A DNA stretch of 37,672 bases from Escherichia coli. Its GTDB lineage: Bacteria > Pseudomonadota > Gammaproteobacteria > Enterobacterales > Enterobacteriaceae. A program made the translations under genes and the position numbers. The DNA is taken from NCBI RefSeq assembly GCF_051903065.1, contig NZ_CP178442.1; one strand, given 5' to 3'. Positions within the stretch are counted from its first letter, which is position 1. Every line of letters begins with the position of its first letter. The notes under the pieces are model-generated. The model saw nothing but the letters and a program-made list of their open reading frames with translations. It did not search any database and was not told the DNA's origin. Positions 19,398 to 33,824 of this stretch are shown piece by piece.

Positions 19398-19489
19398 CAA
19401 TGCAGGATAGACAATCATGGTCAAAATGTTAACATTTTATCCATGATTGTCCAAAAACGATGTTTTTGCCTGTGCCTGCCGCAGGCTCT
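19398..19489 (-). promoter_or_regulatory. 92-bp element, inverted copy of 10923..11014; candidate origin of transfer adjacent to the relaxase operon (nic motif TATCCTGC on bottom strand, 19402-19409)
   Basis: Exact reverse-complement identity to 10923-11014; lies 13 bp upstream of the taxA-like gene and is preceded by hairpins (gttacggc-ttca-gccgtaac at about 19216-19235). Confidence 0.55.
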
Positions 19490-19502
19490 GTTGGGGTGAG
19501 TT

Positions 19503-20006
19503 ATGAAGATGATAGCGTTCAGACTTAGTGATGATGAGTTAAAACTTGCAGAGCATAACGCTATATCAAGTGGGTTTACCAGCATCAATACATTTGCCAG
19601 GCATAATGTGCTTAATGTTGATGTTCAACCATCAAATATACCTGTCAGCAATGAATCATCAAAGGCTGTTAAAACCTGTTTATACCCTCATGAAATAGAA
19701 CTTGTTAAACGTAATGCTGCCCTTCACGGCATGAGCATGAGCAGAGAAATTGCTATTCGTGTGCGTCAGTCTTTGTTAAAAAATGAAGTCTGTCTTTACC
19801 CTGATGAAGTTAAGGAACTTAAAAAACTATCAACTGCTGTAGATCGTGTTGGTCGCAACATTCATTTTATCATAAAAGGTGAAAGATTCTGTACGGTTAA
19901 CGATCCTGATTTCAGAAAAGACGTTATTGAAGTGATTGAACTGTGTAAGCAAATTGATTCAAAACTTGAAACGTTAACCAAGAGTGTTGTTAACCGATTT
20001 GGGTGA
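19503..20006 (+). CDS. taxA: relaxosome accessory protein (TaxA-like), RHH-type DNA-binding
   Basis: 167 aa; N-terminal RHH-like MKMIAFRLSDDELKLAEHNAISSGF and a second similar segment; immediately upstream of relaxase gene. Confidence 0.6.
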   Translation: MKMIAFRLSDDELKLAEHNAISSGFTSINTFARHNVLNVDVQPSNIPVSNESSKAVKTCLYPHEIELVKRNAALHGMSMSREIAIRVRQSLLKNEVCLYPDEVKELKKLSTAVDRVGRNIHFIIKGERFCTVNDPDFRKDVIEVIELCKQIDSKLETLTKSVVNRFG

Positions 20007-20009
20007 TTT

Positions 20010-21239
20010 ATGGGTGTGTATGTAGAACAGGAATACCGTATTAAACGCGCTAAAGGGACAGGGCGTGATCCGAAATCTCCTAAGTTATCAGGAAGACATA
20101 TACATGCCAGTAAATCGGCTTTTAATCATAAAGTCAGACATGGCGCAGACAAGAAAGCATATACCTGGACGCCAACAAAAGAAGTCACTTTTAAAATCAC
20201 TGGTTCAGGGAAAACAGCCGCAGGTATCAAAAACGGTATTGATTACATTACCCGTAATGGTGAACTTGAGGCTTACTGTTATGATGGAAAAGGTTCAGAG
20301 CAAACAGGGAAAGGAGAAGACTTTAACAGGGAGTTTACTTCAACTTTATCTAAAGGAAATGATTACTCCAGGACATATCGTGGAGAAAACATCGATCATG
20401 TGAAAAACATGGTCTTTTCACCACCACCAGAAGCTGGAGTAAGCAGGGAAGACGCTCTGAAAGCTACGGTAGAATTTCTTAAAGAGACTTATCCAAACCA
20501 TGCTTTCGTTGCCGTATACCATGATGATAAAGAAGATCATCCTCATGTACATGTTAATATTAAACTTCGTGATGAAGAAACAGGAAGAAGATTAAGACTT
20601 ACTAAATCTGAAACCAGGAAGTTCAGAAACGGTTTTCATAGAAAACTGAAAGGTATGGGATATGATGTTACCGCTACCTGGAAAAAAGATCCCGAACGTA
20701 AACGGGAGATTGAGCGATTACAGGCTGAAAATCCGAAAAGACTCCGGAATGTTTACAAGGTGGTGGATTTTGGGGAGACTTCATATCAGAATAAGGCAGG
20801 GGAAAAACGAACACCTTTCCTCACTTATGAAACTTTAAAAGGTGGAAAACAGGTTACGATTTGGGGTAAAGACCTGAAAAATCATTTCGAGTCTGAAAAG
20901 CTCCAGCCAGGAACGCTTATCAAAGTAAAAAAACTGGCTCCTACGCTTGTACGTAGTCCAATGTTTAATGATGATGGAACTGTTGCAGGCTACAGGGAAA
21001 CGCATCGCAATAACTGGCAGATTGAAAATATTGCCCTTGAGCGGAACAGAGAACGTCAGGTTCATGAGCGTGAAACCAGGCAGCCGGAAGAGAGCGACGT
21101 TAAAAAGCAGCTATCCAGAAAACATGAGCAAGGTCACAATATCGGGTTTGCTCTTGAACACGGGTTTACAAAGGATTCAGAAGAACATAAAAAACTAAGA
21201 ATACAGCAAGAGAGGAACTGGAAAGGCCTGGGATTTTAA
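20010..21239 (+). CDS. taxC: conjugative relaxase, MOBP family (TaxC-like)
   Basis: 409 aa; histidine-triad metal-binding motif HDDKEDHPHVHVNI typical of MOBP relaxases; N-terminal region with candidate catalytic Tyr. Confidence 0.75.
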   Translation: MGVYVEQEYRIKRAKGTGRDPKSPKLSGRHIHASKSAFNHKVRHGADKKAYTWTPTKEVTFKITGSGKTAAGIKNGIDYITRNGELEAYCYDGKGSEQTGKGEDFNREFTSTLSKGNDYSRTYRGENIDHVKNMVFSPPPEAGVSREDALKATVEFLKETYPNHAFVAVYHDDKEDHPHVHVNIKLRDEETGRRLRLTKSETRKFRNGFHRKLKGMGYDVTATWKKDPERKREIERLQAENPKRLRNVYKVVDFGETSYQNKAGEKRTPFLTYETLKGGKQVTIWGKDLKNHFESEKLQPGTLIKVKKLAPTLVRSPMFNDDGTVAGYRETHRNNWQIENIALERNRERQVHERETRQPEESDVKKQLSRKHEQGHNIGFALEHGFTKDSEEHKKLRIQQERNWKGLGF

Positions 21240-21315
21240 TTTGATTTTGGCGCAGGTGAACAAAGCGGCTACTTTGCTCACCTGCTAATCACAACAACCT
21301 ACATGGGAGGTTATC

Positions 21316-21582
21316 ATGACTAAGCATGATGCTATACGCATTTCGCAACTTCATCAAATCTTTCCAGAGGTTCAGTTAACTGAACGACAGAAAGATATTG
21401 CAGTGATGTATGTAATTGGTTGCACAGTTGAGGAAATTGCGTCAGAAAAAGGGATCACGACCGATGGTGTTATGTATCATTTGAATCTGGTAAAAAGAGC
21501 CGTAGGTAGTGCAACTCTGGTAGGAGTGCGCACAACTGCGTTTCTTAGGATGATGGCAATCTTATTAACAAGGGAGTCATAA
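21316..21582 (+). CDS. actX: LuxR-type helix-turn-helix transcriptional regulator (ActX-like activator of transfer genes)
   Basis: 88 aa; LuxR C-terminal HTH signature LTERQKDIAVMYVIGCTVEEIASEKGITTDGVMYHLNLVKRA. Confidence 0.65.
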   Translation: MTKHDAIRISQLHQIFPEVQLTERQKDIAVMYVIGCTVEEIASEKGITTDGVMYHLNLVKRAVGSATLVGVRTTAFLRMMAILLTRES

Positions 21583-21586
21583 CATT

Positions 21587-21820
21587 ATGAGTTATATGAA
21601 AAAAACAAGAATTCTTTCGTTGGTTTTGTTCTCAATTGCATTGAGTGGTTGTGGTGAGGACATCAAGACCGTTGATTGGTGGCGAAATCATCCGGAGGAA
21701 GCGATCTCGAAGGTTGAAGAGTGTAAGAAGTCAGGCGACGTATCGGATAATTGTAAAAACGCCAAGACTGCGTTGTACAAGAATCAGCAACAAGATGCGC
21801 CTGTGCCTCAAATTAATTAA
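21587..21820 (+). CDS. small lipoprotein (77 aa), possible entry-exclusion or T4SS-associated lipoprotein
   Basis: Signal peptide with lipobox LSGC; Cys/Lys-rich mature part; located at head of the T4SS region. Confidence 0.5.
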   Translation: MSYMKKTRILSLVLFSIALSGCGEDIKTVDWWRNHPEEAISKVEECKKSGDVSDNCKNAKTALYKNQQQDAPVPQIN

Positions 21821-21996
21821 AAGATACAACCCAAGCAGGTGTTGATACTAAATTATAGCCGACCAGATGGTCGGTTTTTTTGTGTCCTCACATAAGAGTG
21901 TCCACTAAAGTTTCTGTAGTTGTGTAGTCTCTTTATTTTGATAATCCTATTTGCATCTAGAACGAATCTAAAACATGTCCATAGTGGATTGATTAA

Positions 21997-22173
21997 ATGA
22001 AGGAGAAACCAGATAAGTCATCGGAAAAAGGGGTTTATGTCACGATAAAACTCGATCCCAGGTTGAATGCATTTATCGAAGAGAAAACGAAAACATCTTT
22101 GCTTAGTAAGAGGAAGCAAATTATTTACTTATTAATGCAGAGTATGCGTATTGATGGATATATGGAGCGTTAG
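21997..22173 (+). CDS. small hypothetical protein (58 aa), possible RHH-type regulator; below ORF-track cutoff
   Basis: ATG 21997 with aatgaaggag RBS context; product MKEKPDKSSEKGVYVTIKLDPRLNAFIEEKTKTSLLSKRKQIIYLLMQSMRIDGYMER; ends 2 bp before the pilX1 ATG. Confidence 0.4.
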   Translation: MKEKPDKSSEKGVYVTIKLDPRLNAFIEEKTKTSLLSKRKQIIYLLMQSMRIDGYMER

Positions 22174-22175
22174 CT

Positions 22176-22796
22176 ATGGCGTCTTTATTCCCAGCCTTGT
22201 TGCTGTGTGCGGCGTCAGTTCATCCGGATACGATAAATGATATTGCACGGGTCGAGAGTGGCTTCAATCCTTATGCTGTGGCTGAAATTATTCCTGAAAG
22301 GGAACGCGGTAGCTATGGCAAAAGTGTTATCAGTCATATGCCCAAAAGTAAGGAGGAAGCTCTAACAGTTATCAGAGAAATTGAAAACAGAAAAAGACGT
22401 TATTCTGTCGGATTGATGCAGATTACCAGCAGTAATTTTTCTTTTTATTCCACGTCCGCAGAAAAACTCCTTGATCCGTGTGAAAACTTGTCTGTTTTCG
22501 AAAAGATTATCGTGGATTGTTATAAACGAGGGAGGAGCCTGGAGAATGCGCTTAGTTGTTACTATACAGGAAATTTTAGTAACGGTAAGCGAAAAGAAAA
22601 AGAATTTAATAATACAAGTTATGTTGAGCGAATTGGTTATACAGGGAACGAAAAAAAATATGTTGTACCAGGTACAAGAAGCAACGGGGGAGAACAGCGA
22701 AAAAATCGTTCACACAATGCGTCAGTTATCTGGCCCGAAACCATTCTGAAATCTGCTTTTGTTGATAACTCACATCCAACAAAAGTTATTAATTAA
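22176..22796 (+). CDS. pilX1: VirB1-like lytic transglycosylase
   Basis: SLT-domain motifs (ARVESGFNPYAV, YSVGLMQITSSN); first gene of T4SS cluster. Confidence 0.8.
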   Translation: MASLFPALLLCAASVHPDTINDIARVESGFNPYAVAEIIPERERGSYGKSVISHMPKSKEEALTVIREIENRKRRYSVGLMQITSSNFSFYSTSAEKLLDPCENLSVFEKIIVDCYKRGRSLENALSCYYTGNFSNGKRKEKEFNNTSYVERIGYTGNEKKYVVPGTRSNGGEQRKNRSHNASVIWPETILKSAFVDNSHPTKVIN

Positions 22797-22809
22797 CAGG
22801 ACTTATAAA

Positions 22810-23136
22810 ATGTCATTTAAGAAATCAGTATGTAATCGTATCAGTTCATCTGTCACTGCTGTTATGCAGCGTAAAAATAAGGTAGTTATGGCAGTCGCCG
22901 GGGCAACAGTCGCATCACCAGCCTTTGCGGATGGATTTTCAAAAGCGGAAACACTGCTGGAAAAGGTCAAAACAGGGCTTAGTGGCCTTTCACTGGTCAC
23001 GGTGACTATTGCCTGTCTGTGGGTCGGCTACAAGGTTCTGTTTGGTGGAAGCACGATTCGTGAATGCTCACCTATCATCATCGGGGCAATTGTTATCGCC
23101 AGTGCGGCTGAAGTTGCATCAATGATGGTTAACTAA
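22810..23136 (+). CDS. pilX2: VirB2-like pilin precursor
   Basis: 108 aa from ATG 22810; long signal/leader followed by two hydrophobic segments, typical of VirB2/TrbC pilins. Confidence 0.7.
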   Translation: MSFKKSVCNRISSSVTAVMQRKNKVVMAVAGATVASPAFADGFSKAETLLEKVKTGLSGLSLVTVTIACLWVGYKVLFGGSTIRECSPIIIGAIVIASAAEVASMMVN

Positions 23137-23154
23137 TAAAGCGGGGACGATAGT

Positions 23155-25902
23155 ATGTCTACACTTTATAAAGCGATGACACGCCCTGCTATGTATGTGG
23201 GTGTTCCTGTCGTCCCTCTTACTGTGGTTGCAGGGGCGTTATTTCTGGCGGGGGTTTATATCAGCAAGCTGATCTGGCTGGCTATTCCTGTCGCAGTTTT
23301 TATTCTCAGAATGATAACTAAGCAGGACGACCACATTTTTAATCTTTACTTTCTTAAGCTGAAAATGCTCGGAAACTCAGTGTGTAATCGTTTTTTTGGC
23401 GCACGAGCGTTCCTCTCCGGACAATATGAAGCTGTTGAAATTGATGAGTTTATTAATGCCATGAAACTGAATGAGCGAATTACTACTGGTAAATATATAC
23501 CCTATTCAAGCCATGTTGATAAAAATATTGTCAAAACAAAGAACGGTGATTATGTAGCGACATGGCAACTGATGGGGATTAACTTTGAGTCAATCTCTGC
23601 GGAGATGTTAGAAACTATTGACTCACAGGTTGCCACTCTTGTTCGTTCATTTTCCGGACTGCCCGTTTCATTTTATAACCATTCATGCAGGGCGAGTTTT
23701 TATGATGCCTTTACCACAAAATCAGGTAATAAATATGCTGATATAATATCAGATTGTTATTATGGTTCGATGAAGAAAAATAAATTCAAGGGGAACACAC
23801 TTTACTTTACGCTGATCTACAGACCAGACGGGCGTGTAGAAAAACTGGAAAAACGCAAAAAAAGTATTAAAGAAAAGAAAGATGATATTAACATTCATGT
23901 GAAGAGAATGAATGAAATGATTAATACATTCTCTGGCGCTCTTGATAAATTTACCTGTAAACTTCTTGGTATGTATGAGGAGAACGGAAAGGTATTTTCT
24001 TCTCAACTGTCATTCTATAATTATCTTCTGACAGGGAAGTTGCAAAAAATCAGAGTCACTGATTCTCCGGTGTATAACGTTCTTGGTGGAGTGGATGTAT
24101 TTTTTAATCATGATACCGGACAGATATGCCGCATTGATGGAAATAAATTCTTTCGTTCTATTGAAATTAAAGATTTCTGTAGTGAGACTGCATCCGGTGT
24201 TTTTGATGTGCTCCAGTATTCTGATGCTGACTATATTATTACGCATTCATATACATCCATGAGCAAATCAGAAGCATTGAGTACCATTAAACGTGCAGAA
24301 AAACAGTTAAAGAGTACAGAAGATGATGCGGTTACTCAATTGCAGGAACTGGAAAAGGCAAAAAATGATATTGTGTCCGGTGATATATCCTTTGGTTACT
24401 ACCATTTCACGCTAATGGTAATGGCGGACAGTATCAGGGAGCTTGACGAATCTGTAAGTAAAATTACGGCAGACTTTACTGACCTGGGCATTATTCCGGC
24501 ATTGTCAACCATGTCATTGCCAGCGGCATATTTTGCCCAGCTTCCGGCGGTTTTTCATTTAAGGCCGCGTTTATCTCCGGTATCGAATGTAAATTTTGTC
24601 GAACTGGCATCATTCCATAATTTCTACCAGGGGAAACGCGATAAAAACTGCTGGACAGAAGCGGTTGCTATTCTCAAAACACCAAGCAAACAGGCGTATT
24701 ATCTGAATTTACATAACTCAGTACTGTTTAAAGATGAAAGAGGTGAAAAGAATCTTGCTAATACTAAAGTTATAGGAACGGCGGGTTCAGGTAAGACAAT
24801 GTTTCTGTCATATCTTGCCTGTTCATTACAGAAATACAATAACCCCGAAACTTTTGCTGACTCTGCAAAAAATAAGAAGTTAACGTGTGTCTTTCTTGAT
24901 AAGGACAGAGGGGCTGAATTATGTATCCGAATGCTTGGTGGGGAATATTACACCGTAAAAAGCGGTGAGCCGACAGGATGGAATCCTTTTGCTCTGGAGG
25001 CAACAAAACGTAACCGTATTTTTGTCAAGCAACTGATGGAGATTCTGTGTACCAGAAATGGTGAAAGATTATCGACAAGAGAAAGATTGCTTATTAGCGA
25101 AAGTGTTGATGCTGTGATGGATTTTCCTCCTGGCGAAATGCGGGAATATGGCATTACCAGAATGCTTGAGCATCTTATGCAGAGAGATGATCGGGATGAG
25201 CAGGAGAACGGGATTATCCTTCGTTTGTCCCAATGGGCTAATGGTCAGGCTCATGGCTGGGTTTTTGATAATGCTAAAGACACATTCAATATTCAGCATG
25301 TCAATAATTTTGGCATTGATGGCACCGAGTTTCTTGATGATCCGATGGTATGTGCACCAATTACTTTCTATCTGCTGTATCGCATTACGCAGCTTCTGGA
25401 CGGTCGGCGTCTTGTTATCTTCCTGGATGAGTTCTGGAAATGGCTACAGGATGAAGCATTCAGCGATTTTGTCTATAACAAGCTGAAAACAATTCGTAAG
25501 CTGAACGGGCTGGTTATTCCGGCAACTCAGTCTCCGGATGAAATACTGAAGAATAAGATTTCACGGGCTGTGGTTGAAGTATGCAGCACCAGTATTTATC
25601 TGGCTAACCCTGATGCCGATTACAATGACTATGTAGAAGGGCTTAAGCTGACACCAGAAGAATTTAATATTGTTAAAAATCTTGATCCAATGTCGAGACA
25701 ATTCCTGATTAAAAAAAGCAGTCTTAAAAAGGGAGATGGTAAATCATTTTCAGCACTTGCGACACTCGATTTATCGGGACTTGGTGGATATCTGAAAATA
25801 TTGTCTGCCAGTGCAGATAATCTGGAAATTTTTGAAAGTATTTATCATGAAGGAATGGAGCCTGATGACTGGGTTCCTGAATATCTCGAACGGGCAATCT
25901 GA
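23155..25902 (+). CDS. pilX3-4: VirB3-VirB4 fusion protein (T4SS ATPase)
   Basis: 915 aa; N-terminal VirB3-like membrane segment, Walker A GTAGSGKTMFLSY and VirB4 C-terminal ATPase region. Confidence 0.88.
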   Translation: MSTLYKAMTRPAMYVGVPVVPLTVVAGALFLAGVYISKLIWLAIPVAVFILRMITKQDDHIFNLYFLKLKMLGNSVCNRFFGARAFLSGQYEAVEIDEFINAMKLNERITTGKYIPYSSHVDKNIVKTKNGDYVATWQLMGINFESISAEMLETIDSQVATLVRSFSGLPVSFYNHSCRASFYDAFTTKSGNKYADIISDCYYGSMKKNKFKGNTLYFTLIYRPDGRVEKLEKRKKSIKEKKDDINIHVKRMNEMINTFSGALDKFTCKLLGMYEENGKVFSSQLSFYNYLLTGKLQKIRVTDSPVYNVLGGVDVFFNHDTGQICRIDGNKFFRSIEIKDFCSETASGVFDVLQYSDADYIITHSYTSMSKSEALSTIKRAEKQLKSTEDDAVTQLQELEKAKNDIVSGDISFGYYHFTLMVMADSIRELDESVSKITADFTDLGIIPALSTMSLPAAYFAQLPAVFHLRPRLSPVSNVNFVELASFHNFYQGKRDKNCWTEAVAILKTPSKQAYYLNLHNSVLFKDERGEKNLANTKVIGTAGSGKTMFLSYLACSLQKYNNPETFADSAKNKKLTCVFLDKDRGAELCIRMLGGEYYTVKSGEPTGWNPFALEATKRNRIFVKQLMEILCTRNGERLSTRERLLISESVDAVMDFPPGEMREYGITRMLEHLMQRDDRDEQENGIILRLSQWANGQAHGWVFDNAKDTFNIQHVNNFGIDGTEFLDDPMVCAPITFYLLYRITQLLDGRRLVIFLDEFWKWLQDEAFSDFVYNKLKTIRKLNGLVIPATQSPDEILKNKISRAVVEVCSTSIYLANPDADYNDYVEGLKLTPEEFNIVKNLDPMSRQFLIKKSSLKKGDGKSFSALATLDLSGLGGYLKILSASADNLEIFESIYHEGMEPDDWVPEYLERAI

Positions 25903-25913
25903 CAGGTGAATTT

Positions 25914-26630
25914 ATGAAACGTGTAAAAACATTTATGCTGATATCATTATTGACGGCTTCATTTTATAGCAGCGCAGGTATTCCGGTTGCTGTAGATGCC
26001 AGTCCGGAATGGGCTGTTGAAGCCGCAAGATGGACAGAACGACTCAAACAATGGTCTGAAACTGCGCAACATTATCAGAGTCAGATTCAGGCATATAAAG
26101 ACCAGTTAGCAACGGCAACAGGTATAAGGAATATTGCGGCATTCACAAATGAACTAAGTAATCTGCAATCAGAACTGACAAATATTTATAAGCAGGGGAA
26201 CAGTTATATTTCTGATTTTACCAGTAATCCCGAAGGTGCATTAAGCAGTCAGGCAAAAAATCTGTTCAGCAAGTATGGAGCCTTCGATATGTGCACTACA
26301 GGCTATGAACGCAATGATAATCTCTGTAAAGCACGGATTGTGTCAAAGGCTGCCAGTATTGAACAGGGAAATGAGATAAATAAGCAGTTATCAAGTGCAA
26401 TGTCTCAGATTCAGAGTTTAAGTACTCGAATTGAGGCTTCAAAGGATATGAAAGAATCCCAGGATTTGGCTAACGCATTACAGGCACAGTCGTTAAAAAT
26501 GCAGGCGATAAAAATGCAGTATGATGTCTGGAATAGTAAAAATCAGGCTGACACGGAGATGTTGAAAGAACAACAAAGGGCTGAATATAAGCAACAACAG
26601 ATGAACGCACCAATACCTACGATTCAATGA
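25914..26630 (+). CDS. pilX5: VirB5-like minor pilus subunit
   Basis: 238 aa, signal peptide, helical Gln/Ala-rich protein in the VirB5 position. Confidence 0.7.
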   Translation: MKRVKTFMLISLLTASFYSSAGIPVAVDASPEWAVEAARWTERLKQWSETAQHYQSQIQAYKDQLATATGIRNIAAFTNELSNLQSELTNIYKQGNSYISDFTSNPEGALSSQAKNLFSKYGAFDMCTTGYERNDNLCKARIVSKAASIEQGNEINKQLSSAMSQIQSLSTRIEASKDMKESQDLANALQAQSLKMQAIKMQYDVWNSKNQADTEMLKEQQRAEYKQQQMNAPIPTIQ

Positions 26631-26640
26631 GGGAAAAGGT

Positions 26641-27720
26641 ATGTCATTCTTTGTTAAATATAATACAACCGTTATGGAAGCAATTGATAAGGTTGGATCT
26701 ACTTATCAAAGTCAATTCACACAAGATATAATGTCATTAGTGACAGCATCTGTCACGTTATATGTACTATGGAAAGGCTATCAAATACTCGCCAGTAAAA
26801 CTCAGACTCCGATGCAGGATTTAGTTTGGGATTTATCAAAATTTGCGATCATAATCATGTTTATAACAAATGCAGATGGATATTTGACAGCGGCAACCAA
26901 TGCATTGCAAGGCATGAAAGATGGGCTTTCTGGCGGAGTTAGCGCATGGCAAACCTTAGATAACTTATGGGAGAAAACACAAAATCTTGCGGAAAAGGTA
27001 TATCAAAAAGACACTGATTTCATTCCTTTGGCTGGCGCATTAGGTATGACGCTTGTTTGGGCTGGCTCACTTATTTTAATGACAATTAGTGCTGTTGTTT
27101 TTTTAACTGCCGATATTACGATGAAATTCCTTATTATAACAGCGCCAATATTTATTTTCTGTCTGATGTTTGGTTTTATTAGAGTTATGTTTAATAACTG
27201 GTTGCAATCGCTATTTTCTAGCATCCTGACTGTGTTATTTGCCAGTTTAGTAATTCGGATAGCTATGGATTTTCAGGGGGATATATTGCAACAAGTATCT
27301 AATGCGACACCCAATAGTAATGTTATGACCGTAAGTGCAATGGGATTTTTAGCCGGATTGTTGGGAGCTTTATTGGTTCTTATAGCTAAAAGTTTTGCTG
27401 TCCAGTTAGCAGGTGCAGGTGTTGAAGGTGCTGTTCAGGGCGCAGCCATGATGGGGCTGGGTGCTGCTGGTATGGCTACTGGTAAGTCTCTGATGCTTGG
27501 CGGTCGCGCTGGTTTAGGTTTTGGCTTAGGGATGGCCGGAAGAACGGGCATGAATTCTTTATCTGGGAAAGCAGGGAATCTGATGGGGCGTGGTGCGCGA
27601 ACAGCCGCTGAATGGGCGGGTGAAAAGGGATATCAGGCGCTGGCTCCGACAGGTGCTTTGGGGATGAAGGCGAGAAGACTTGCATCCCTGGAAAAAGCAC
27701 GAGCGAGGAATGCCGCATGA
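26641..27720 (+). CDS. pilX6: VirB6-like polytopic inner-membrane protein
   Basis: 359 aa with multiple hydrophobic helices and Gly/Ala-rich C-terminal tail; VirB6 position. Confidence 0.75.
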   Translation: MSFFVKYNTTVMEAIDKVGSTYQSQFTQDIMSLVTASVTLYVLWKGYQILASKTQTPMQDLVWDLSKFAIIIMFITNADGYLTAATNALQGMKDGLSGGVSAWQTLDNLWEKTQNLAEKVYQKDTDFIPLAGALGMTLVWAGSLILMTISAVVFLTADITMKFLIITAPIFIFCLMFGFIRVMFNNWLQSLFSSILTVLFASLVIRIAMDFQGDILQQVSNATPNSNVMTVSAMGFLAGLLGALLVLIAKSFAVQLAGAGVEGAVQGAAMMGLGAAGMATGKSLMLGGRAGLGFGLGMAGRTGMNSLSGKAGNLMGRGARTAAEWAGEKGYQALAPTGALGMKARRLASLEKARARNAA

Positions 27721-27870
27721 ATATAATGAAACGTTTTTTTTATGTGATGTCCCTGAACTGGATACTGACGTTTGTTGATAAACATATCACCTCCGGATGG
27801 AGCAGGAAGAGAAAGCTAATAACCCAGCTTATTATTTTAATCACGGGAATTACCTTATTTAAGGTCTTAG

Positions 27871-28101
27871 GTGGAATCAGTCAGAGCTGGTTGTGACATG
27901 CTTCATTATTTTGTCATGATACTTTATTTTGTCCTAATCCTTCTTTTAGGAGTGTTTACCTGCTTCGCAGGAATAAGACTTGGTTTAGGGCTTGCGGGGA
28001 AATGGAGAAAGGGTATGGATCTTCGCTTTTTGCTTCTTATTGGTGGGATTCTTTTTCTTCATCTTGGCCTTTATCTCTTAAAGGTGTTCGTGAACGCTTA
28101 A
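27871..28101 (+). CDS. hypothetical small membrane protein between pilX6 and pilX7 (candidate entry-exclusion protein)
   Basis: 76-aa ORF (alternative start at 27898) with two hydrophobic helices; position typical for small exclusion genes in VirB-like clusters. Confidence 0.4.
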   Translation: MESVRAGCDMLHYFVMILYFVLILLLGVFTCFAGIRLGLGLAGKWRKGMDLRFLLLIGGILFLHLGLYLLKVFVNA

Positions 28102-28113
28102 TAAGGTGAATTT

Positions 28114-28239
28114 ATGCGATGTGTGATTCTTTTGTTTTTCCTGTTTCAGATTTCCGGATGTACCACAAGGAATACCCTTCCTTCTGATGTTTCCGGCGAA
28201 CTGGAACCCATTAACCACAGCCAGGTAATCAGTTATGAG
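28114..28239 (+). CDS. pilX7: VirB7-like small lipoprotein (41 aa), below ORF-track cutoff
   Basis: MRCVILLFFLFQISGCTTRN...: signal peptide plus lipobox ISGC; stop TGA overlaps the ATG of the VirB8-like gene (ATGAGTGA). Confidence 0.6.
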
Positions 28240-28921
28240 TGAAAAAATCGAAAAGAAGATTGAGACAGCTAAATCCTTCGAAAGACAACTCTATGCAGAA
28301 AATGAACGGTCTAAGAAAAATGCATGGCGTGTTGCAGTGGCAGCATCATTACTGTCCTTATGTCTTGGGGCTGCAATTTGCGTTCTTGTGCCATTAAAAG
28401 AAAAAGAGCTTGCTATTGTGGCTGTTGGCGAAAAAACAGGCCGTACAGAACTGATTACTCAGGTTAAACAGGAAAAGATCCTGCAATCTGAAGCGCTTGG
28501 GCGGTATTTTGTAAACACGTATATTACTTTACGTGAAGGTTATAATTATCCGTCTCTTCAGTATGATTATGAGACTGTACAGATATATAGCTCGAATACA
28601 GTAAAGGACGATTATCTTCGTCTGTATAACAGCGATATGGCTCCTGATAAAATTTATCATAATAACGGTTCTTACGTTGCGGTTGAGGTCATCTCCAATA
28701 TTATTTCTGACGCAACCGCGCCAGATAAACTGGCCTCTGTGCGTTTTAAAAAAACGACGAGAAACTTCACGACCGGACAGGTTTCAGTTTCATACTGGAC
28801 GGCTCGTGTGACATATCGTTTTGAACCAGAAAAGTCGGTTAAAAGTTCCAGTCGTGAGCTTAATCCTCTCGGTTTTACGGTAACCAGTTACCAGACAGAT
28901 CGGGAAGTCAGGGGGGAATGA
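28235..28921 (+). CDS. pilX8: VirB8-like bitopic inner-membrane protein
   Basis: 228 aa, single N-terminal TM helix then periplasmic domain; position and size typical of VirB8. Confidence 0.75.
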   Translation: MSEKIEKKIETAKSFERQLYAENERSKKNAWRVAVAASLLSLCLGAAICVLVPLKEKELAIVAVGEKTGRTELITQVKQEKILQSEALGRYFVNTYITLREGYNYPSLQYDYETVQIYSSNTVKDDYLRLYNSDMAPDKIYHNNGSYVAVEVISNIISDATAPDKLASVRFKKTTRNFTTGQVSVSYWTARVTYRFEPEKSVKSSSRELNPLGFTVTSYQTDREVRGE

Positions 28922-29826
28922 TGAAGAAATTATTTATTGCTACATGTTTATTGCTTCCTGGGCTTGTGTATTCAGCAGCGACTCCGTTACCTTCTGGATT
29001 TGATGCAAGGATGCAGACTGTGAGTTATAACGGTGCGAATACGACCGTTATCCGGTCAAAGACAGGATTTCTCACATCAGTTGTTTTTGATGAAGGTGAG
29101 GCTGTTATCAGTGCAAAGGCTGGTTTTCCTGCCGGATGGGAAATCACAACCGATGATAATGTTGTTTACATCAATCCGCGTCCCGTTGTTCAGGAACAGG
29201 AAGGCGATGAAGGCGAAAAACTGAAAAAGGTTTTCCAGCCAACAGAAAAGGAATGGGACACGAATCTTTTTGTCAGAACAACAAAGCGGATTTACAGTCT
29301 TGATCTAATCCTTCTGTCAGAAGAAAAACAAGCGCAACCTGCTTATGTTGTACAATTCCGCTATCCATCAGAAATAGCGAAAAAGAATGCAGAAGAAGTA
29401 AGGCTGGCAAAAGAAAAACAGGAAAAACTCAGACAGAAGAAACTGATTTCTGAAAGTTTTGAAAAAGCCGATGCGCCTAAAAACTGGGATTATTTCATGC
29501 GAGTCAATGAAAAATATGACAGTCGTCGTATCGCCCCTGATTTTGCTTATGATAATGGCATATTTACCTTTTTAGGTTTTAACTCAGGGAAAGTATTCCC
29601 AGCTCCATTTGCTGTAAGAGATGGTCAGGAACAGACACTTGCTTTTAATGTGGAAACAAAAGGCAAGTATAAAATCATGGTTATCCACAACGTTAATGAC
29701 AAATTTGTTTTACGCTATGGAAACAGCGTTGTTGGTGTTGTGAATAAATCTTTCGGAAAAGTATTAACCGACCAGAGGAATACATCTTCTCCTGCGGTAG
29801 AACGTGTTGAGGTGAATAATGACTGA
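28918..29826 (+). CDS. pilX9: VirB9-like outer-membrane core complex protein
   Basis: 302 aa with signal peptide; translationally coupled to flanking genes; VirB9 position. Confidence 0.75.
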   Translation: MMKKLFIATCLLLPGLVYSAATPLPSGFDARMQTVSYNGANTTVIRSKTGFLTSVVFDEGEAVISAKAGFPAGWEITTDDNVVYINPRPVVQEQEGDEGEKLKKVFQPTEKEWDTNLFVRTTKRIYSLDLILLSEEKQAQPAYVVQFRYPSEIAKKNAEEVRLAKEKQEKLRQKKLISESFEKADAPKNWDYFMRVNEKYDSRRIAPDFAYDNGIFTFLGFNSGKVFPAPFAVRDGQEQTLAFNVETKGKYKIMVIHNVNDKFVLRYGNSVVGVVNKSFGKVLTDQRNTSSPAVERVEVNND

Positions 29827-30937
29827 TATGAAAAAAACAGATGATTTAGTTGATGATGCGAATCAGTCAAAGCTGGAAAGTAAACCCGTTCATGATATCG
29901 GTGATATCAGGAACAAAAATAATCGTATGCGTTCTGGCTTTCTGTTTGGTCTGATGGCTGTATTAGTTATTGGTATTTTTGCGCTGAAAACATATAAAAA
30001 TTATTTTGCAGATGACCAGCAGAAAGCATCAGAATTAACAGGCGATACCAGCATTTCTCAGGTCAGTAAAATCCGTACTGGTCTTGGTCAGAATTTTGAC
30101 CCTGTTGAGAACAAAGCAATTATCAATCCAGGCGCTACTGGTTCTGGTAATACTGTTTCTGACGGTCATAAAGAAGTGCCACAGGAGGGGTTCAGGAAAT
30201 ATTTGTCAATACCTGTTGCTGGTCAGGGAGGGAGTCAGACTGGCGCGAGTGGCAGCAGCAGGACATCGCAGACATCAGAGCCACAGGAAGAAAGGAAAGA
30301 ATCAAAAGAAAATGTGCCTGGTAAATCAGGAATGAAAGTGACTGCGATTAATCTCGATCCTGATCTCTATATTGAGGAAAACAGGCTTATACCGTGTGCT
30401 TTAACTACACGCTTTGTTTCTGATGTTGCAGGTCGTATCAGTTGTGTTTTTACAGAAGATGTATGGAGTGCTAATCACCACACAAAATTACTGGAACAGG
30501 GAACTAAGGCTTTTGGTCGTTACCAGACCGGAACGCTGAATCATGGACAGGGCAGAATGTTCGTTATGTGGGAGCAGTTGCGGACGCCTGATAATAAACG
30601 AATCGATATGGTAAATACAGCAGCGGCTGGTCCCCTGGGGGAAGCAGGCATTGATGGATGGATCGATTCTCACTTCTGGGAGCGTTTTGGTGGTTCTCTT
30701 ATGCTCAGTATGGTTCAGGATGTAGCGGCGGCGGCGGCGGATAATGCACCTGGTAAAGATCGTAATGTGGATTATACCGAAAACTCACGACAGGCAATGG
30801 CTGAAATGGCTAAAGTCGCACTTGAGAATTCGATAAATATTCCTCCAACAATGTATAAAAACCAAGGTGACATAATCACTATTATGGTCGGGGAAGACAT
30901 TGATTTTTCTGATATCTATGAGTTAAAGGTAAAATAG
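29819..30937 (+). CDS. pilX10: VirB10-like core complex protein
   Basis: 372 aa; N-terminal TM helix, Pro/Gly/Ser-rich linker, conserved C-terminal VirB10/TrbI domain (RIDMVNTAAAGPLGEAGIDGWIDSHFWERFGG). Confidence 0.8.
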   Translation: MTDMKKTDDLVDDANQSKLESKPVHDIGDIRNKNNRMRSGFLFGLMAVLVIGIFALKTYKNYFADDQQKASELTGDTSISQVSKIRTGLGQNFDPVENKAIINPGATGSGNTVSDGHKEVPQEGFRKYLSIPVAGQGGSQTGASGSSRTSQTSEPQEERKESKENVPGKSGMKVTAINLDPDLYIEENRLIPCALTTRFVSDVAGRISCVFTEDVWSANHHTKLLEQGTKAFGRYQTGTLNHGQGRMFVMWEQLRTPDNKRIDMVNTAAAGPLGEAGIDGWIDSHFWERFGGSLMLSMVQDVAAAAADNAPGKDRNVDYTENSRQAMAEMAKVALENSINIPPTMYKNQGDIITIMVGEDIDFSDIYELKVK

Positions 30938-30938
30938 T

Positions 30939-31967
30939 ATGAGTGGCGTTATTCCTGTCAGCATTAGCAATAAATCGCTCGATTTTTATAAAAATCAAGT
31001 ATTCCAGTCTTTTCTTGATATTGAAGGGCTAACAGAAATTGCTGTCAACCGTCCTGGTGAAATCTGGACGGAAATTAATGGTGACTGGACATTCCATAAT
31101 AATGACGGTGTGACCTTTGATTTTTGTAAACGGTTTTCTCAGACGCTGGCATCATTTCGGGGAGATGAAATCGGCGATACCAAGCCATTACTTTCAGCAA
31201 CACTGGAATCAGGAGAACGTGTACAGGTCGTTTTTCCTCCTGCATGTGAGAGAAATACTATTTCAATCACCATACGTAAACCATCGACACGGCAGATAAC
31301 GCATAAAGAATATGTGGCGAACGGTTTTTATGATTATGTCCAGTCAGGAAAAAAACACAGGACATACGATGATGAGCTTCTTGATTTATTCAGAGCGAGA
31401 AATATCGCTGCTTTTATGGAGCTTGCCGTAGCAGCAGGGAAAACCATTGTATTTGCCGGAGCAACGGGTTCCGGTAAAACAACTTATATGAAGAGTCTTA
31501 TCGATTTCATACCATTGAATACACGGCTGATTACGATTGAAGATGCAGAGGAAATCAAATTTTTTATCCATAAAAATTATGTGCATCTTTTTTACCCTTC
31601 GGAATCCGGCAGTGATTCCGGCTCTATCATAACAGCAGCGAAATTAATCAAATCCTGTTTGAGGATGAAACCTGACAGAATTTTACTGGCGGAAATTAAA
31701 GGTGGCGATGCCTGGGATTTTGTGAAAGTTGCTGGTTCTGGTCACAGTGGAAGCATGACGTCCATTCACGCGGCCTCGGCAAAAGATGCCATCATTCAGA
31801 TGGTGACAAAATGTTATCAGAATAGAGAATGTCAGAATCTTCCTTTTGATGTTCTTCGTAAAATCATTATGGACAGTATTGATATTGTTGTTCATGTAGG
31901 CAGGGATGGTGTTGTCAGGCATATGAGCGACATCTATTACAAAGGGGCTGAATGTGAAAACTTTTAA
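30939..31967 (+). CDS. pilX11: VirB11-like traffic ATPase
   Basis: 342 aa; Walker A GATGSGKTT, Walker B/His box region (ILLAEIKGGDAWDF, GSGHSGSMTSIHA). Confidence 0.88.
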   Translation: MSGVIPVSISNKSLDFYKNQVFQSFLDIEGLTEIAVNRPGEIWTEINGDWTFHNNDGVTFDFCKRFSQTLASFRGDEIGDTKPLLSATLESGERVQVVFPPACERNTISITIRKPSTRQITHKEYVANGFYDYVQSGKKHRTYDDELLDLFRARNIAAFMELAVAAGKTIVFAGATGSGKTTYMKSLIDFIPLNTRLITIEDAEEIKFFIHKNYVHLFYPSESGSDSGSIITAAKLIKSCLRMKPDRILLAEIKGGDAWDFVKVAGSGHSGSMTSIHAASAKDAIIQMVTKCYQNRECQNLPFDVLRKIIMDSIDIVVHVGRDGVVRHMSDIYYKGAECENF

Positions 31968-33816
31968 TAAGTCGCAATCTGTTTTTATATTCGCTGTTAT
32001 GCTTGTTGCGGCATGGTTTGCAGGTTCATTTATTTTCTTTGTGCTTTACTTCAGCCAGATAAAGAATCTGAAACCATTGAAGGCTGTGTTCAGATCCATT
32101 GATGCGTACAGGATGGATATTTTTACAGACAGCCTTACTTTATCTGTTGTGACTACGGATATCAGAATTTTAGCCTTTGTTGCACTTGGAGCAGGATTTG
32201 TCGTGTCTCTTATCATCCCTGTTGCGGCGTTGATAAAACTGAACGAGAAGAAAGAAAATATTTTCGGTGATGCGCGATTTGCAACAATTAATGATATTCG
32301 TGAGTCTAACAGTTTCACGCTTGACGGTGACGAAAAAGACGGGATTATCGTTGGTATAAAAGACAAGAAAATAATACGCTATGTGGGAGCAGCATTCAGT
32401 GCTATGGGAGCCGGAACAAGGGCTGGTAAAGGTGCTGGTATAGTCATCACTAATCTTATGAAGTACTGGTGGAGTGTTATTATTCTCGATCCAAAAAGGG
32501 AGTGTTTTAATATCACCAGTCTTATCAGGAAGGTGATTTTAGGTCATGAGGTTTATAAATTTGATCCCTTTAGTCCGGTAACGCACCGCTTTAACCCTTT
32601 GTATTATGTCAGCATGGGAACGAGTGAAGGTTTTAACCAGCTTGAAAATCTTTCGTTGATTATTTACCCCTATAAGACAGATGGTGCGGATGCTGGTAGC
32701 TATCTTAATAAGACGGCGGGTGGTGTTTTTAAATCTTATGCTGTCGCTTTATGGTTTATGATTAAGAATGATAAGGCTGGACTAAAAACGCTTGATATTG
32801 AGCCTGTCTTCTCAATGTCTAAAATTAATCAGCTTTTTGAGCGTGCAGAACCCGAACATCTTCTTTCATTCATGAATGATATTCGTTCAGAATTAAGGGG
32901 GAAAGACAAAACGCTTGCTGATATTGGTGTAGCTGGCCTTAAGGCATTCATTGAGATGGAGGATAAAACAAAAGCACAACTCAAAAGCAACTTTCTTAAT
33001 GGATTATCACCGTTTGCTAACCCCAATGTGGCAAATGCTACTGATGGAAATGATTTTGATTTGCGGCAGGTGCGGAAAAAGCGGATGACAATTTATTTCT
33101 GTATTTCTGGTGATAATGCCAGGTTGGCTGAAAAAATAACAAATATTTTCTTTCAGCTTGCTATACAGGTGAATCTTGAAAAGATGCCAACGGATGATCC
33201 GGAAATAAAGCATGACTGCCTTTTTCTACTGGATGAATTCCCGTCAATTGGTGCTGTAGATTACATCAAGAGTAAATCTGGTCTCATTGCTGGTTACAAG
33301 CTGAAATTGTTGATTGTTTACCAGGTCGGCTCTCAGCTTGAGGAAATCTACAGTTATGCAGGCAGTAAAACATTACTGGCAAGTGCACCCTGCAAAATTG
33401 TTTATTCCGCTTCTGATGTTAAAGATGCGCGGGAGTTATCAGAAGCGATGGGGACACGAACAGTAACTATCGGTTCGAAAAGCAAAAGTCGTAGTCGTGG
33501 AGGAACATCGAGATCTGAATCAGAAAGCCTTATTGAGCGTCCACTGGTAACAACAAATGAACTACTTACACTGAAATTTAGTGAAGAAATCCTGGCAATG
33601 AAGGGAGAAAACCCGATTCGTTGTGAAAAGGCATTCTACTATCTCAATGAGTATTTCTTTGGTGACTTTGTGAAGGTTGCTCCGGAACTTGCAAACATTT
33701 TCCCCAGGAAGAAAGGAAAGCTGGTTATGCCTCCACAGAAAGTATTTGAAAATGAAATCGTCGCAAAAGGGTATCTGGCAGTAAAAGATGTTCCTGATCT
33801 CGATAAAGCGGCATAA
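31954..33816 (+). CDS. taxB: VirD4-like type IV coupling protein
   Basis: 620 aa; two N-terminal TM helices, Walker A-like GAGTRAGKGAG, Walker B LLDEFPSIG; follows virB11 homologue. Confidence 0.85.
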   Translation: MKTFNKSQSVFIFAVMLVAAWFAGSFIFFVLYFSQIKNLKPLKAVFRSIDAYRMDIFTDSLTLSVVTTDIRILAFVALGAGFVVSLIIPVAALIKLNEKKENIFGDARFATINDIRESNSFTLDGDEKDGIIVGIKDKKIIRYVGAAFSAMGAGTRAGKGAGIVITNLMKYWWSVIILDPKRECFNITSLIRKVILGHEVYKFDPFSPVTHRFNPLYYVSMGTSEGFNQLENLSLIIYPYKTDGADAGSYLNKTAGGVFKSYAVALWFMIKNDKAGLKTLDIEPVFSMSKINQLFERAEPEHLLSFMNDIRSELRGKDKTLADIGVAGLKAFIEMEDKTKAQLKSNFLNGLSPFANPNVANATDGNDFDLRQVRKKRMTIYFCISGDNARLAEKITNIFFQLAIQVNLEKMPTDDPEIKHDCLFLLDEFPSIGAVDYIKSKSGLIAGYKLKLLIVYQVGSQLEEIYSYAGSKTLLASAPCKIVYSASDVKDARELSEAMGTRTVTIGSKSKSRSRGGTSRSESESLIERPLVTTNELLTLKFSEEILAMKGENPIRCEKAFYYLNEYFFGDFVKVAPELANIFPRKKGKLVMPPQKVFENEIVAKGYLAVKDVPDLDKAA

Positions 33817-33824
33817 AGGAGAAC

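Follow-up and report, generated by a model that had tools for sequence, protein, structure and literature searches.

The question raised by the block at positions 22176-33816 of this Escherichia coli DNA was whether it encodes a complete conjugative type IV secretion system (T4SS), and whether the replicon that carries it, together with the resistance gene cfr, can be expected to transfer itself. The window (the whole stretch of DNA that was analysed, 37,672 bp) was found to be a complete circular IncX4 plasmid, and the block is an intact, well-studied and already known IncX4 transfer apparatus on a published plasmid type. The pilX1-pilX11/taxB genes constitute a complete P-type (VirB/D4, MPF_T) conjugative T4SS with its coupling protein. 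The functional unit extends beyond the block and includes the origin of transfer (oriT), taxA/taxC, a regulator gene, eex, cds9, cag12 and trbM. As the transfer module lies on the same 37.7-kb replicon as an IS26-cfr-IS26 segment, the plasmid is predicted to be self-transmissible, and its gene content makes it very probable that it would move both itself and cfr between bacteria.

The components were called from the listing of open reading frames (ORFs) and from hidden Markov model (HMM) scans (Pfam, NCBIfam), and the motifs were read from the translations. The first position of the block was found to be the start of pilX1 and the last position the stop of taxB, and the T4SS ORFs were all present on the plus strand, contiguous and in canonical order, as given below (aa, amino acids).

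22176-22796, plus strand: pilX1, VirB1 lytic transglycosylase (Pfam SLT, 2.4e-12)
22810-23136, plus strand: pilX2, VirB2 pilin (Pfam TrbC/VirB2, 1.2e-17)
23155-25902, plus strand: pilX3-4, fused VirB3-VirB4 ATPase of 915 aa (VirB3 at aa 2-81, VirB4 at aa 111-913)
25914-26630, plus strand: pilX5, VirB5 (Pfam T4SS, 2e-27)
26641-27720, plus strand: pilX6, VirB6 polytopic inner-membrane protein (Pfam TrbL/VirB6, 7.8e-46)
28235-28921, plus strand: pilX8, VirB8 (Pfam VirB8, 5.3e-49)
28918-29826, plus strand: pilX9, VirB9 (TIGR02781, 220.4 bits against a cut-off of 217.7; Pfam CagX)
29819-30937, plus strand: pilX10, VirB10 (NF041422, 427 bits against a cut-off of 400)
30939-31967, plus strand: pilX11, VirB11 ATPase (TIGR02788, 358 bits against a cut-off of 250; Walker A GATGSGKT)
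31954-33816, plus strand: taxB, VirD4 coupling protein with a GTG start (Pfam T4SS-DNA_transf, PF02534, 4.3e-94; TraG-D_C, PF12696)

VirB1, B2, B3, B4, B5, B6, B8, B9, B10, B11 and VirD4 were each found above the Pfam gathering score. PilX3-4 was found to reach 658.5 bits against TIGR00929 (cut-off 643.1) and to contain the Walker A motif GTAGSGKT and the Walker B motif VIFLDE. TaxB contained N-terminal hydrophobic segments followed by a Walker A-like GTRAGKG and a Walker B LFLLDE motif. In PilX1, the Glu of the -ES- dipeptide within VESGF is presumably the catalytic residue, as judged from what is known of SLT domains. The closest solved homologues were found among the proteins of R388 (TrwK, 1e-146 with PilX3-4; TrwE, 1.3e-47 with PilX10), and PilX10 also matched TraF at 1e-39. 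The gene content, the order, the VirB3-VirB4 fusion and the strand were as the initial annotation of this DNA had given them. That annotation had also claimed extensive translational coupling, which was borne out at five of the 12 gene junctions, where overlaps of 4-14 nucleotides (nt) were found (pilX6/orf59, 4 nt; pilX7/pilX8, 8 nt; pilX8/pilX9, 4 nt; pilX9/pilX10, 8 nt; pilX11/taxB, 14 nt), and was not borne out at the remaining seven, which were found to be gaps of 1-18 nt.

The reference used for function was the transfer system of pHNSHP23, an mcr-1 IncX4 plasmid characterised by Tn-seq, Cappable-seq and RNA-seq, in which high-density transposon mutagenesis found 10 pilX genes together with taxA, taxB and taxC to be essential for transfer (PMC8725589). 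The plasmid pGMI17-004_2 (CP028167), whose pixR is 100% identical to that of pHNSHP23 according to Table S1 of PMC8725589, was used as its surrogate. All 13 essential genes were found in the window, full length in comparison with pJARS35 (IncX7, Yersinia pestis Java 9) and with 82-100% aa identity to pGMI17-004_2. No truncated gene was found against pJARS35 or the mcr-1-type plasmid, and PilX1, which aligned over 176 of its 206 aa with the mcr-1-type allele, was nevertheless full length against pJARS35. No frameshift or stop was found in the pilX and tax genes. Disrupting mutations in essential T4SS genes, which the initial annotation had named, in combination with failed matings, as something that would speak against transfer, were therefore not found; the genes were full length with intact motifs, and its prediction of a self-transmissible plasmid was supported by this complete and undamaged set.

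The two systems were found to share the same operon layout, an eex gene upstream of pilX1 and two inverted oriT-like copies. PilX2, PilX3-4, PilX7-11, TaxB, TaxC, Cag12 and TrbM were 97.6-100% identical to the mcr-1 type, with TaxC at 100%, and the DNA was ~99.5% identical over most of 21933-34520. The differences were confined to a few patches. At 19400-19800, which covers the inner oriT repeat and the 5' half of taxA, the DNA was 82-88% identical and TaxA 89.8%; at 26300-27400, which covers the 3' end of pilX5 and pilX6, PilX5 was 91% and PilX6 82% identical at the aa level; everything after 34520, downstream of trbM, had diverged; and a fourth patch, at the regulator and eex, is taken up below.

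The plasmid itself was found to be practically the same plasmid as pSD11 (KM212169; E. coli, swine, China) and pYUYZVE78-cfr (CP069136; E. coli, tomato). These two, with pYUYZVE29-cfr (CP069135), are cfr IncX4 plasmids of E. coli and its closest known relatives. After rotation and reverse complementation, the window differed from each of pSD11 and pYUYZVE78-cfr by five scattered substitutions, with equal length (37,672 bp) and gene order; within 22176-33816 no difference was found against CP069136 and one nucleotide against pSD11, at 33431 in taxB. Classification, which had been proposed as a check on the prediction, was available for near-identical PLSDB records, and MOB-suite typed them as IncX4, MOBP, MPF_T and conjugative. 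The T4SS block was matched by 470 PLSDB plasmids, 446 of them typed as conjugative, and by 46 PLSDB plasmids at a DNA identity of at least 99%. The presence of cfr, also asserted initially, was confirmed on the same replicon as the T4SS.

~4843-5892, minus strand: cfr, between two IS26 copies

VirB7 alone among the components had neither an HMM match nor a PDB sequence match. No match was obtained for it with Pfam, NCBIfam, phmmer against PDB or a three-sequence profile against PDB, and in the RefSeq-derived records examined 27721-28234 was found without annotation, pilX7 included. The interval 27717-28242 was found to contain three small ORFs.

27717-27896, plus strand: orf59, small membrane protein, its ATG overlapping the pilX6 stop (ATGA)
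27898-28101, plus strand: orf68, very hydrophobic small ORF (alternatively 76 aa from a GTG at 27871)
28114-28242, plus strand: pilX7, VirB7 lipoprotein of 42 aa with the lipobox ISGC, overlapping pilX8 by 8 nt

The third of these is the best VirB7 candidate. Its product starts with MRCVILLFFLFQISGC, and in an alignment with TrwH of R388 (7o3j_C) and TraN of pKM101 (3zbi_C) the only invariant columns were the lipidated Cys, a P and an N. The P-[ILV]-N-K motif of VirB7 contacts VirB9, as seen in the pKM101 TraN-TraO structures. PilX7 contains PINH where TrwH contains PVNK, at an equal distance from the Cys, with the K of the motif replaced by H. An ORF at the matching position was found in 517 plasmids by tblastn; the identity was 67% in pJARS35 and 36-38% in pO177B2, with conserved synteny in both, and the counterpart in pO177B2 was annotated as a 46-aa 'hypothetical protein'. 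The PilX7 line of Table S6 in PMC8725589 gives 65% against the IncX7 homologue. The lipobox, the alignment of the P-[IV]-N motif, the synteny and the agreement with Table S6 thus place the putative pilX7/virB7 at 28114-28242, so that the VirB7 homologue of the initial annotation was located by means other than an HMM match.

Two other small products were considered for VirB7 and ruled out. The orf59 product (59 aa) contained one hydrophobic segment and no lipobox, and the Cag12-family lipoprotein at 33825-34247 was 140 aa long, encoded downstream of taxB and scored below the Pfam threshold. The orf59 gene was kept in pJARS35 (44-47% aa identity), where it is annotated, whereas orf68 was present in IncX4 and absent from pJARS35. 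Either orf59 or orf68 is presumably the 'cds8' of PMC8725589.

The MOBP relaxase and the accessory protein that had been reported beside the T4SS proved to be real. They were found upstream of the block with two copies of a candidate oriT and a further repeat.

19503-20006, plus strand: taxA/ddp1, relaxosome accessory protein (NF041451 DDP1, 235 bits; Pfam NikA-like, ribbon-helix-helix N-terminus)
20010-21239, plus strand: taxC, MOBP relaxase (NF041450 MobP1, 403.8 bits; Pfam Relaxase)
19398-19489, minus strand: candidate oriT-1, nic consensus TATCCTG|C at 19402-19409, ~95 bp upstream of taxA
10923-11014, plus strand: second candidate oriT copy, nic motif at 11003-11010, across the replication region from oriT-1 and close to pir
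21252-21285, no strand assigned: inverted repeat of 14 bp in the interval from taxC to the regulator gene, without nic consensus and in single copy

TaxC was found to contain the HxDxxxxHxH-type motif HDDKEDHPHVH. The MOBP consensus YATCCTG|Y occurred once in the 364-bp gap upstream of taxA. This nic motif (TATCCTGC) adjoins an inverted repeat of 21+21 nt at 19410-19451 and stands directly 3' of the repeat on the nicked strand. When reverse-complemented, 19398-19489 matched 10923-11014 with 100% identity along all 92 bp, and these two exact inverted copies of the candidate oriT core flank pir and the replication/maintenance genes. The motif and repeat of oriT-1 were found at the same position in pJARS35 and in the mcr-1-type IncX4 plasmid, and upstream of ddp1 in pJARS35 the nic motif was the only match in 5.4 kb. 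The mcr-1-type plasmid also contained two oriT-like copies, each with the repeat variant of its own plasmid, which suggests concerted change of both copies together with TaxA. The sites 10923-11014 and 19398-19489 are therefore treated here as a probable, candidate oriT pair.

A nick on the minus strand would place the inverted repeat at the 3' end of the transferred strand, with the transfer genes entering last, which is the usual arrangement; the transferred minus strand is the template for all plus-strand genes. A different position was indicated by users of oriTfinder, who reported as 'oriT-like' an inverted repeat of pEC11b that corresponds to 21252-21285 here. That repeat was ranked below the site upstream of taxA, being without nic consensus, not duplicated and not placed as in R6K, and it is more likely a hairpin or operator, or perhaps a terminator, than an oriT.

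Further genes of the unit were found between taxC and pilX1 and downstream of taxB (HTH, helix-turn-helix; PGAP, Prokaryotic Genome Annotation Pipeline).

21316-21582, plus strand: PixR-like LuxR-type HTH regulator of 88 aa (Pfam GerE / Sigma70_r4_2, weak)
21587-21820, plus strand: eex, EexN-family entry-exclusion lipoprotein (NF033894, 68 bits against a cut-off of 33; lipobox LSGC)
21857-21882, plus strand: terminator-like hairpin and T-run after eex, with an equivalent hairpin in the mcr-1-type plasmid
21877-21996, plus strand: presumed PpilX promoter region, transcription start by homology near 21955
21997-22173, plus strand: cds9-like small ORF of 58 aa that opens the pilX operon, with 98.3% identity to its mcr-1-type counterpart
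33825-34247, plus strand: Cag12-family lipoprotein gene (lipobox LAGC; Pfam Cag12 1e-3, below threshold; PGAP name)
34231-34536, plus strand: trbM/kikA-family gene (Pfam TrbM, 1.3e-8)

In pHNSHP23, the genes cds9-pilX1-6-cds8-pilX7-11-taxB-trbM are transcribed from one start site, located 42 bp upstream of cds9, the LuxR-type PixR binds and activates the pilX promoter, and a 120-bp upstream fragment was activated by PixR; deletion of cds9 abolished transfer, probably through a polar effect (PMC8725589). A scan for the sigma-70 consensus upstream of cds9 in the window gave no convincing promoter, as expected of an activator-dependent one. The PixR-like protein is presumed to be the activator of the pilX operon and, with fold class and position kept, it probably works like PixR.

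After taxB, cag12 and trbM followed with short or overlapping junctions, and the same pair follows the coupling-protein gene in IncX7. The trbM gene of pHNSHP23 was the last gene shown in the pilX operon; the main text of PMC8725589, which gives 18 essential genes, names neither the Cag12-family gene nor trbM as one of them.

Transfer has been reported for related plasmids and strains. IncX4 plasmids were found to transfer at ~1e-2 to 1e-4 (PMC8725589) and pEC11b at a frequency of 4.6e-5, and the strain EC727A3, which carries p727A3-62K-cfr, gave cfr-positive J53 transconjugants (PMC9493366); the T4SS block of p727A3-62K-cfr was found to be 100.0% identical to that of the window. A single chicken farm yielded the 37-kb IncX4 cfr plasmid type from E. 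coli of two sequence types (PMC11997318). The regulator allele of the window (at least 95% identity) was found in 71 PLSDB plasmids, 70 of which were typed as conjugative; their hosts were E. coli, E. albertii, Salmonella, Klebsiella and Citrobacter, and the sources sampled were humans, pigs, poultry, mouse, produce and water.

Several observations weigh against self-transmissibility. The transfer evidence comes from the literature on related plasmids and strains and not from the exact plasmid, and the EC727A3 donor carries many plasmids, with helper effects possible (PMC9493366). In the chicken-farm study, matings were made with each of the 18 cfr strains, of which five carried the 37-kb IncX4 plasmid (pCE8-4, 37,672 bp), and transfer was reported only for an IncFII(K)-IncR-IncFIB plasmid, which implies a negative result for pCE8-4 under 16 ug/ml florfenicol (PMC11997318). 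The PixR-like regulator and Eex were only 46% and 48% identical, respectively, to the mcr-1-type alleles, and at 21363-21933 (regulator, eex, terminator and upstream promoter) the DNA could not be aligned to the mcr-1 type, homology starting only at 21933, so that the upstream part of the promoter is lineage-specific and the PixR activator and PpilX operator in the form defined for pHNSHP23 were not found. PixR-like proteins were reported in 29 of 272 IncX4 plasmids, and the pixR match that Table S1 gives for pSD11 is only partial (PMC8725589); the regulator of the window was placed in this minority because its 46% identity matches the statement made there. The plasmid also encodes hns and hha, and an H-NS-like protein represses the transfer of IncX3 (PMC11880322); by analogy, the H-NS-family protein of this plasmid might repress transfer here too.

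These observations lend some weight to an apparatus that is intact but effectively silent, or very inefficient, in ordinary laboratory mating, owing to the variant PixR-like regulator and promoter or to silencing by H-NS/Hha, so that the plasmid would behave as non-transferable in standard assays and would spread mainly clonally or with help. Such repression would fit with the finding that PixR of pHNSHP23 is inactive without recipient contact (PMC8725589) and with the description of IncX pili as naturally repressed. This explanation is nevertheless unlikely. The negative result for pCE8-4 was not explicit, and it was obtained with florfenicol although cfr often gives no florfenicol resistance in E. 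coli transconjugants: cfr-positive E. coli transconjugants and transformants mostly stayed susceptible to florfenicol (PMC7823714), which weakens both the florfenicol-selected negatives and the florfenicol selection that the initial annotation had proposed for a mating test. The almost uniform conjugative typing of the regulator-allele plasmids and their spread over hosts and sources are hard to explain without transfer, and J53 did acquire cfr from a donor strain whose T4SS block is identical.

It is far less probable that the plasmid is only mobilisable, with a mating-pair-formation component broken by substitutions and a helper T4SS needed. PilX1, PilX5 and PilX6 show a divergence of 9-18% from the alleles that were tested by experiment, but all genes were full length with intact motifs, the same PilX6 allele (at least 99% identity) was found in 66 PLSDB plasmids that were all typed as conjugative, and the divergence stood in discrete patches, like allelic exchange rather than decay. 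VirB/D4-type systems can also translocate effectors, or take up or release DNA, in other bacteria. That this T4SS is such a system and not a conjugation machine is extremely improbable, for although these precedents exist and a Cag12-family lipoprotein is encoded downstream, the same 37.7-kb plasmid encodes a MOBP relaxase with its accessory protein, a coupling protein and an entry-exclusion protein and contains oriT-like sites, and the homologous pHNSHP23 system was shown by experiment to be conjugative (PMC8725589).

The transfer module was also compared with other known systems. In pJARS35, the same order was found, with the LuxR-type regulator, orf59, pilX7, cag12 and trbM all in place and eex again upstream of pilX1; its oriT core was 97.8% identical to that of the window and its proteins were 57-88% identical, whereas the orf68 segment between orf59 and pilX7 was absent and the second oriT-like copy was only partly kept. 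The IncX archetype R6K (IncX2), with pilX1-11 and taxA-taxB-taxC, was found to share the P-type T4SS, the VirB3-4 fusion, a gene of the Cag12 family behind that for the coupling protein, and the module of ddp1/taxA and relaxase. R6K contained TATCCTGC ~87 bp upstream of ddp1/taxA and a second time before ddp3, within a ~110-bp inverted repeat flanking the replication region, which is the same two-copy layout as in the window. Two functional oriTs have been reported for R6K (Avila et al. 1996, cited by its title in PMC3316555). The proteins of R6K and IncX4 were given as ~24-52% identical (Table S6, PMC8725589). The eex gene of R6K was present between pilX5 and pilX6, whereas that of the window was upstream of pilX1, a position in which the window contrasts with pO177B2 as well, and the regulator of R6K was of the NusG/RfaH type (ActX/PrfaH type) where the window contained the PixR-like protein.

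The component set and order were also the same in R388 Trw and pKM101 Tra, for which T4SS structures have been solved, and in Agrobacterium VirB/D4. In contrast to these, the window contained a VirB3-VirB4 fusion, extra small ORFs between B6 and B7, and a MOBP relaxase; the relaxases of R388 and pKM101 are MOBF.

On these comparisons, the following course of transfer may be proposed. The PixR-like activator (21316-21582) would switch on one operon containing cds9, pilX1-6, the two small ORFs, pilX7-11, taxB, cag12 and trbM, as in pHNSHP23. Judged from the protein families and the R388 and pKM101 structures, PilX7, PilX9 and PilX10 would form the outer-membrane core, PilX3-4, PilX6 and PilX8 the inner-membrane complex, and PilX2 and PilX5 the pilus, with PilX1 cutting the peptidoglycan and PilX3-4 and PilX11 acting as ATPases. 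TaxA and the relaxase TaxC would assemble at the oriT upstream of taxA, followed by a nick by TaxC on the minus strand at TATCCTG|C, between 19403 and 19402, a position suggested by the motif and by positional homology with R6K. TaxB would then hand the TaxC-bound strand to the channel, with the replication/leading region first and the transfer genes last, and Eex would limit redundant transfer into cells that already contain the plasmid.

In comparison with the dominant mcr-1 lineage, a joint exchange of four recognition modules seems to have taken place: the activator with its operator; Eex with PilX6, its presumed target, and the C-terminus of PilX5; the N-terminus of TaxA; and the inner part of the inverted repeat in both oriT copies. 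The Eex allele of the window (at least 90% identity) was found in 71 PLSDB plasmids, the same number as the regulator allele, and the mcr-1-type alleles in some 370-430. Among the 60 regulator carriers and the 60 PilX6 carriers listed, 53 accessions were common, and the regulator and PilX6 alleles thus travel together; the Eex set of 71 records stood outside this record-by-record comparison. The pSD11-type plasmids (~70 in PLSDB) may tentatively be regarded as a separate 'specificity group' within IncX4, a proposal that we hold to be possible but doubtful. If it is true, the two lineages would not exclude or cross-activate each other and perhaps would not cross-mobilise, which would help to explain the occurrence of cfr-type and mcr-1-type IncX4 backbones in the same farms.

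The remaining observations concern the rest of the plasmid. A full-length Rfam match to the Bacillus small RNA ncr1575 (RF02452) was found at 4529-4746 on the minus strand (110.7 bits, gathering score 60), just downstream of cfr and within the low-GC segment bounded by IS26, and it agrees with a cfr module of Gram-positive origin. The topB gene was split by the ends of the window, with 36804-37672 joined to 1-1285, as expected of a circular record, and was followed by the two genes given below.

1282-1488, same strand as topB: hha
1504-1968, same strand as topB: H-NS-family gene

What the present analysis adds to this published plasmid type is a checked map of the whole transfer module, which places the unannotated pilX7 and shows the variant regulator and a likely pair of oriTs, and a warning that florfenicol selection may under-report transfer. 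The gene cfr confers resistance to phenicols, lincosamides, oxazolidinones, pleuromutilins and streptogramin A. Concern over its spread is already documented for this plasmid family, and a small cfr plasmid that transfers itself would be a credible route of spread among Enterobacterales in animals, food and people.

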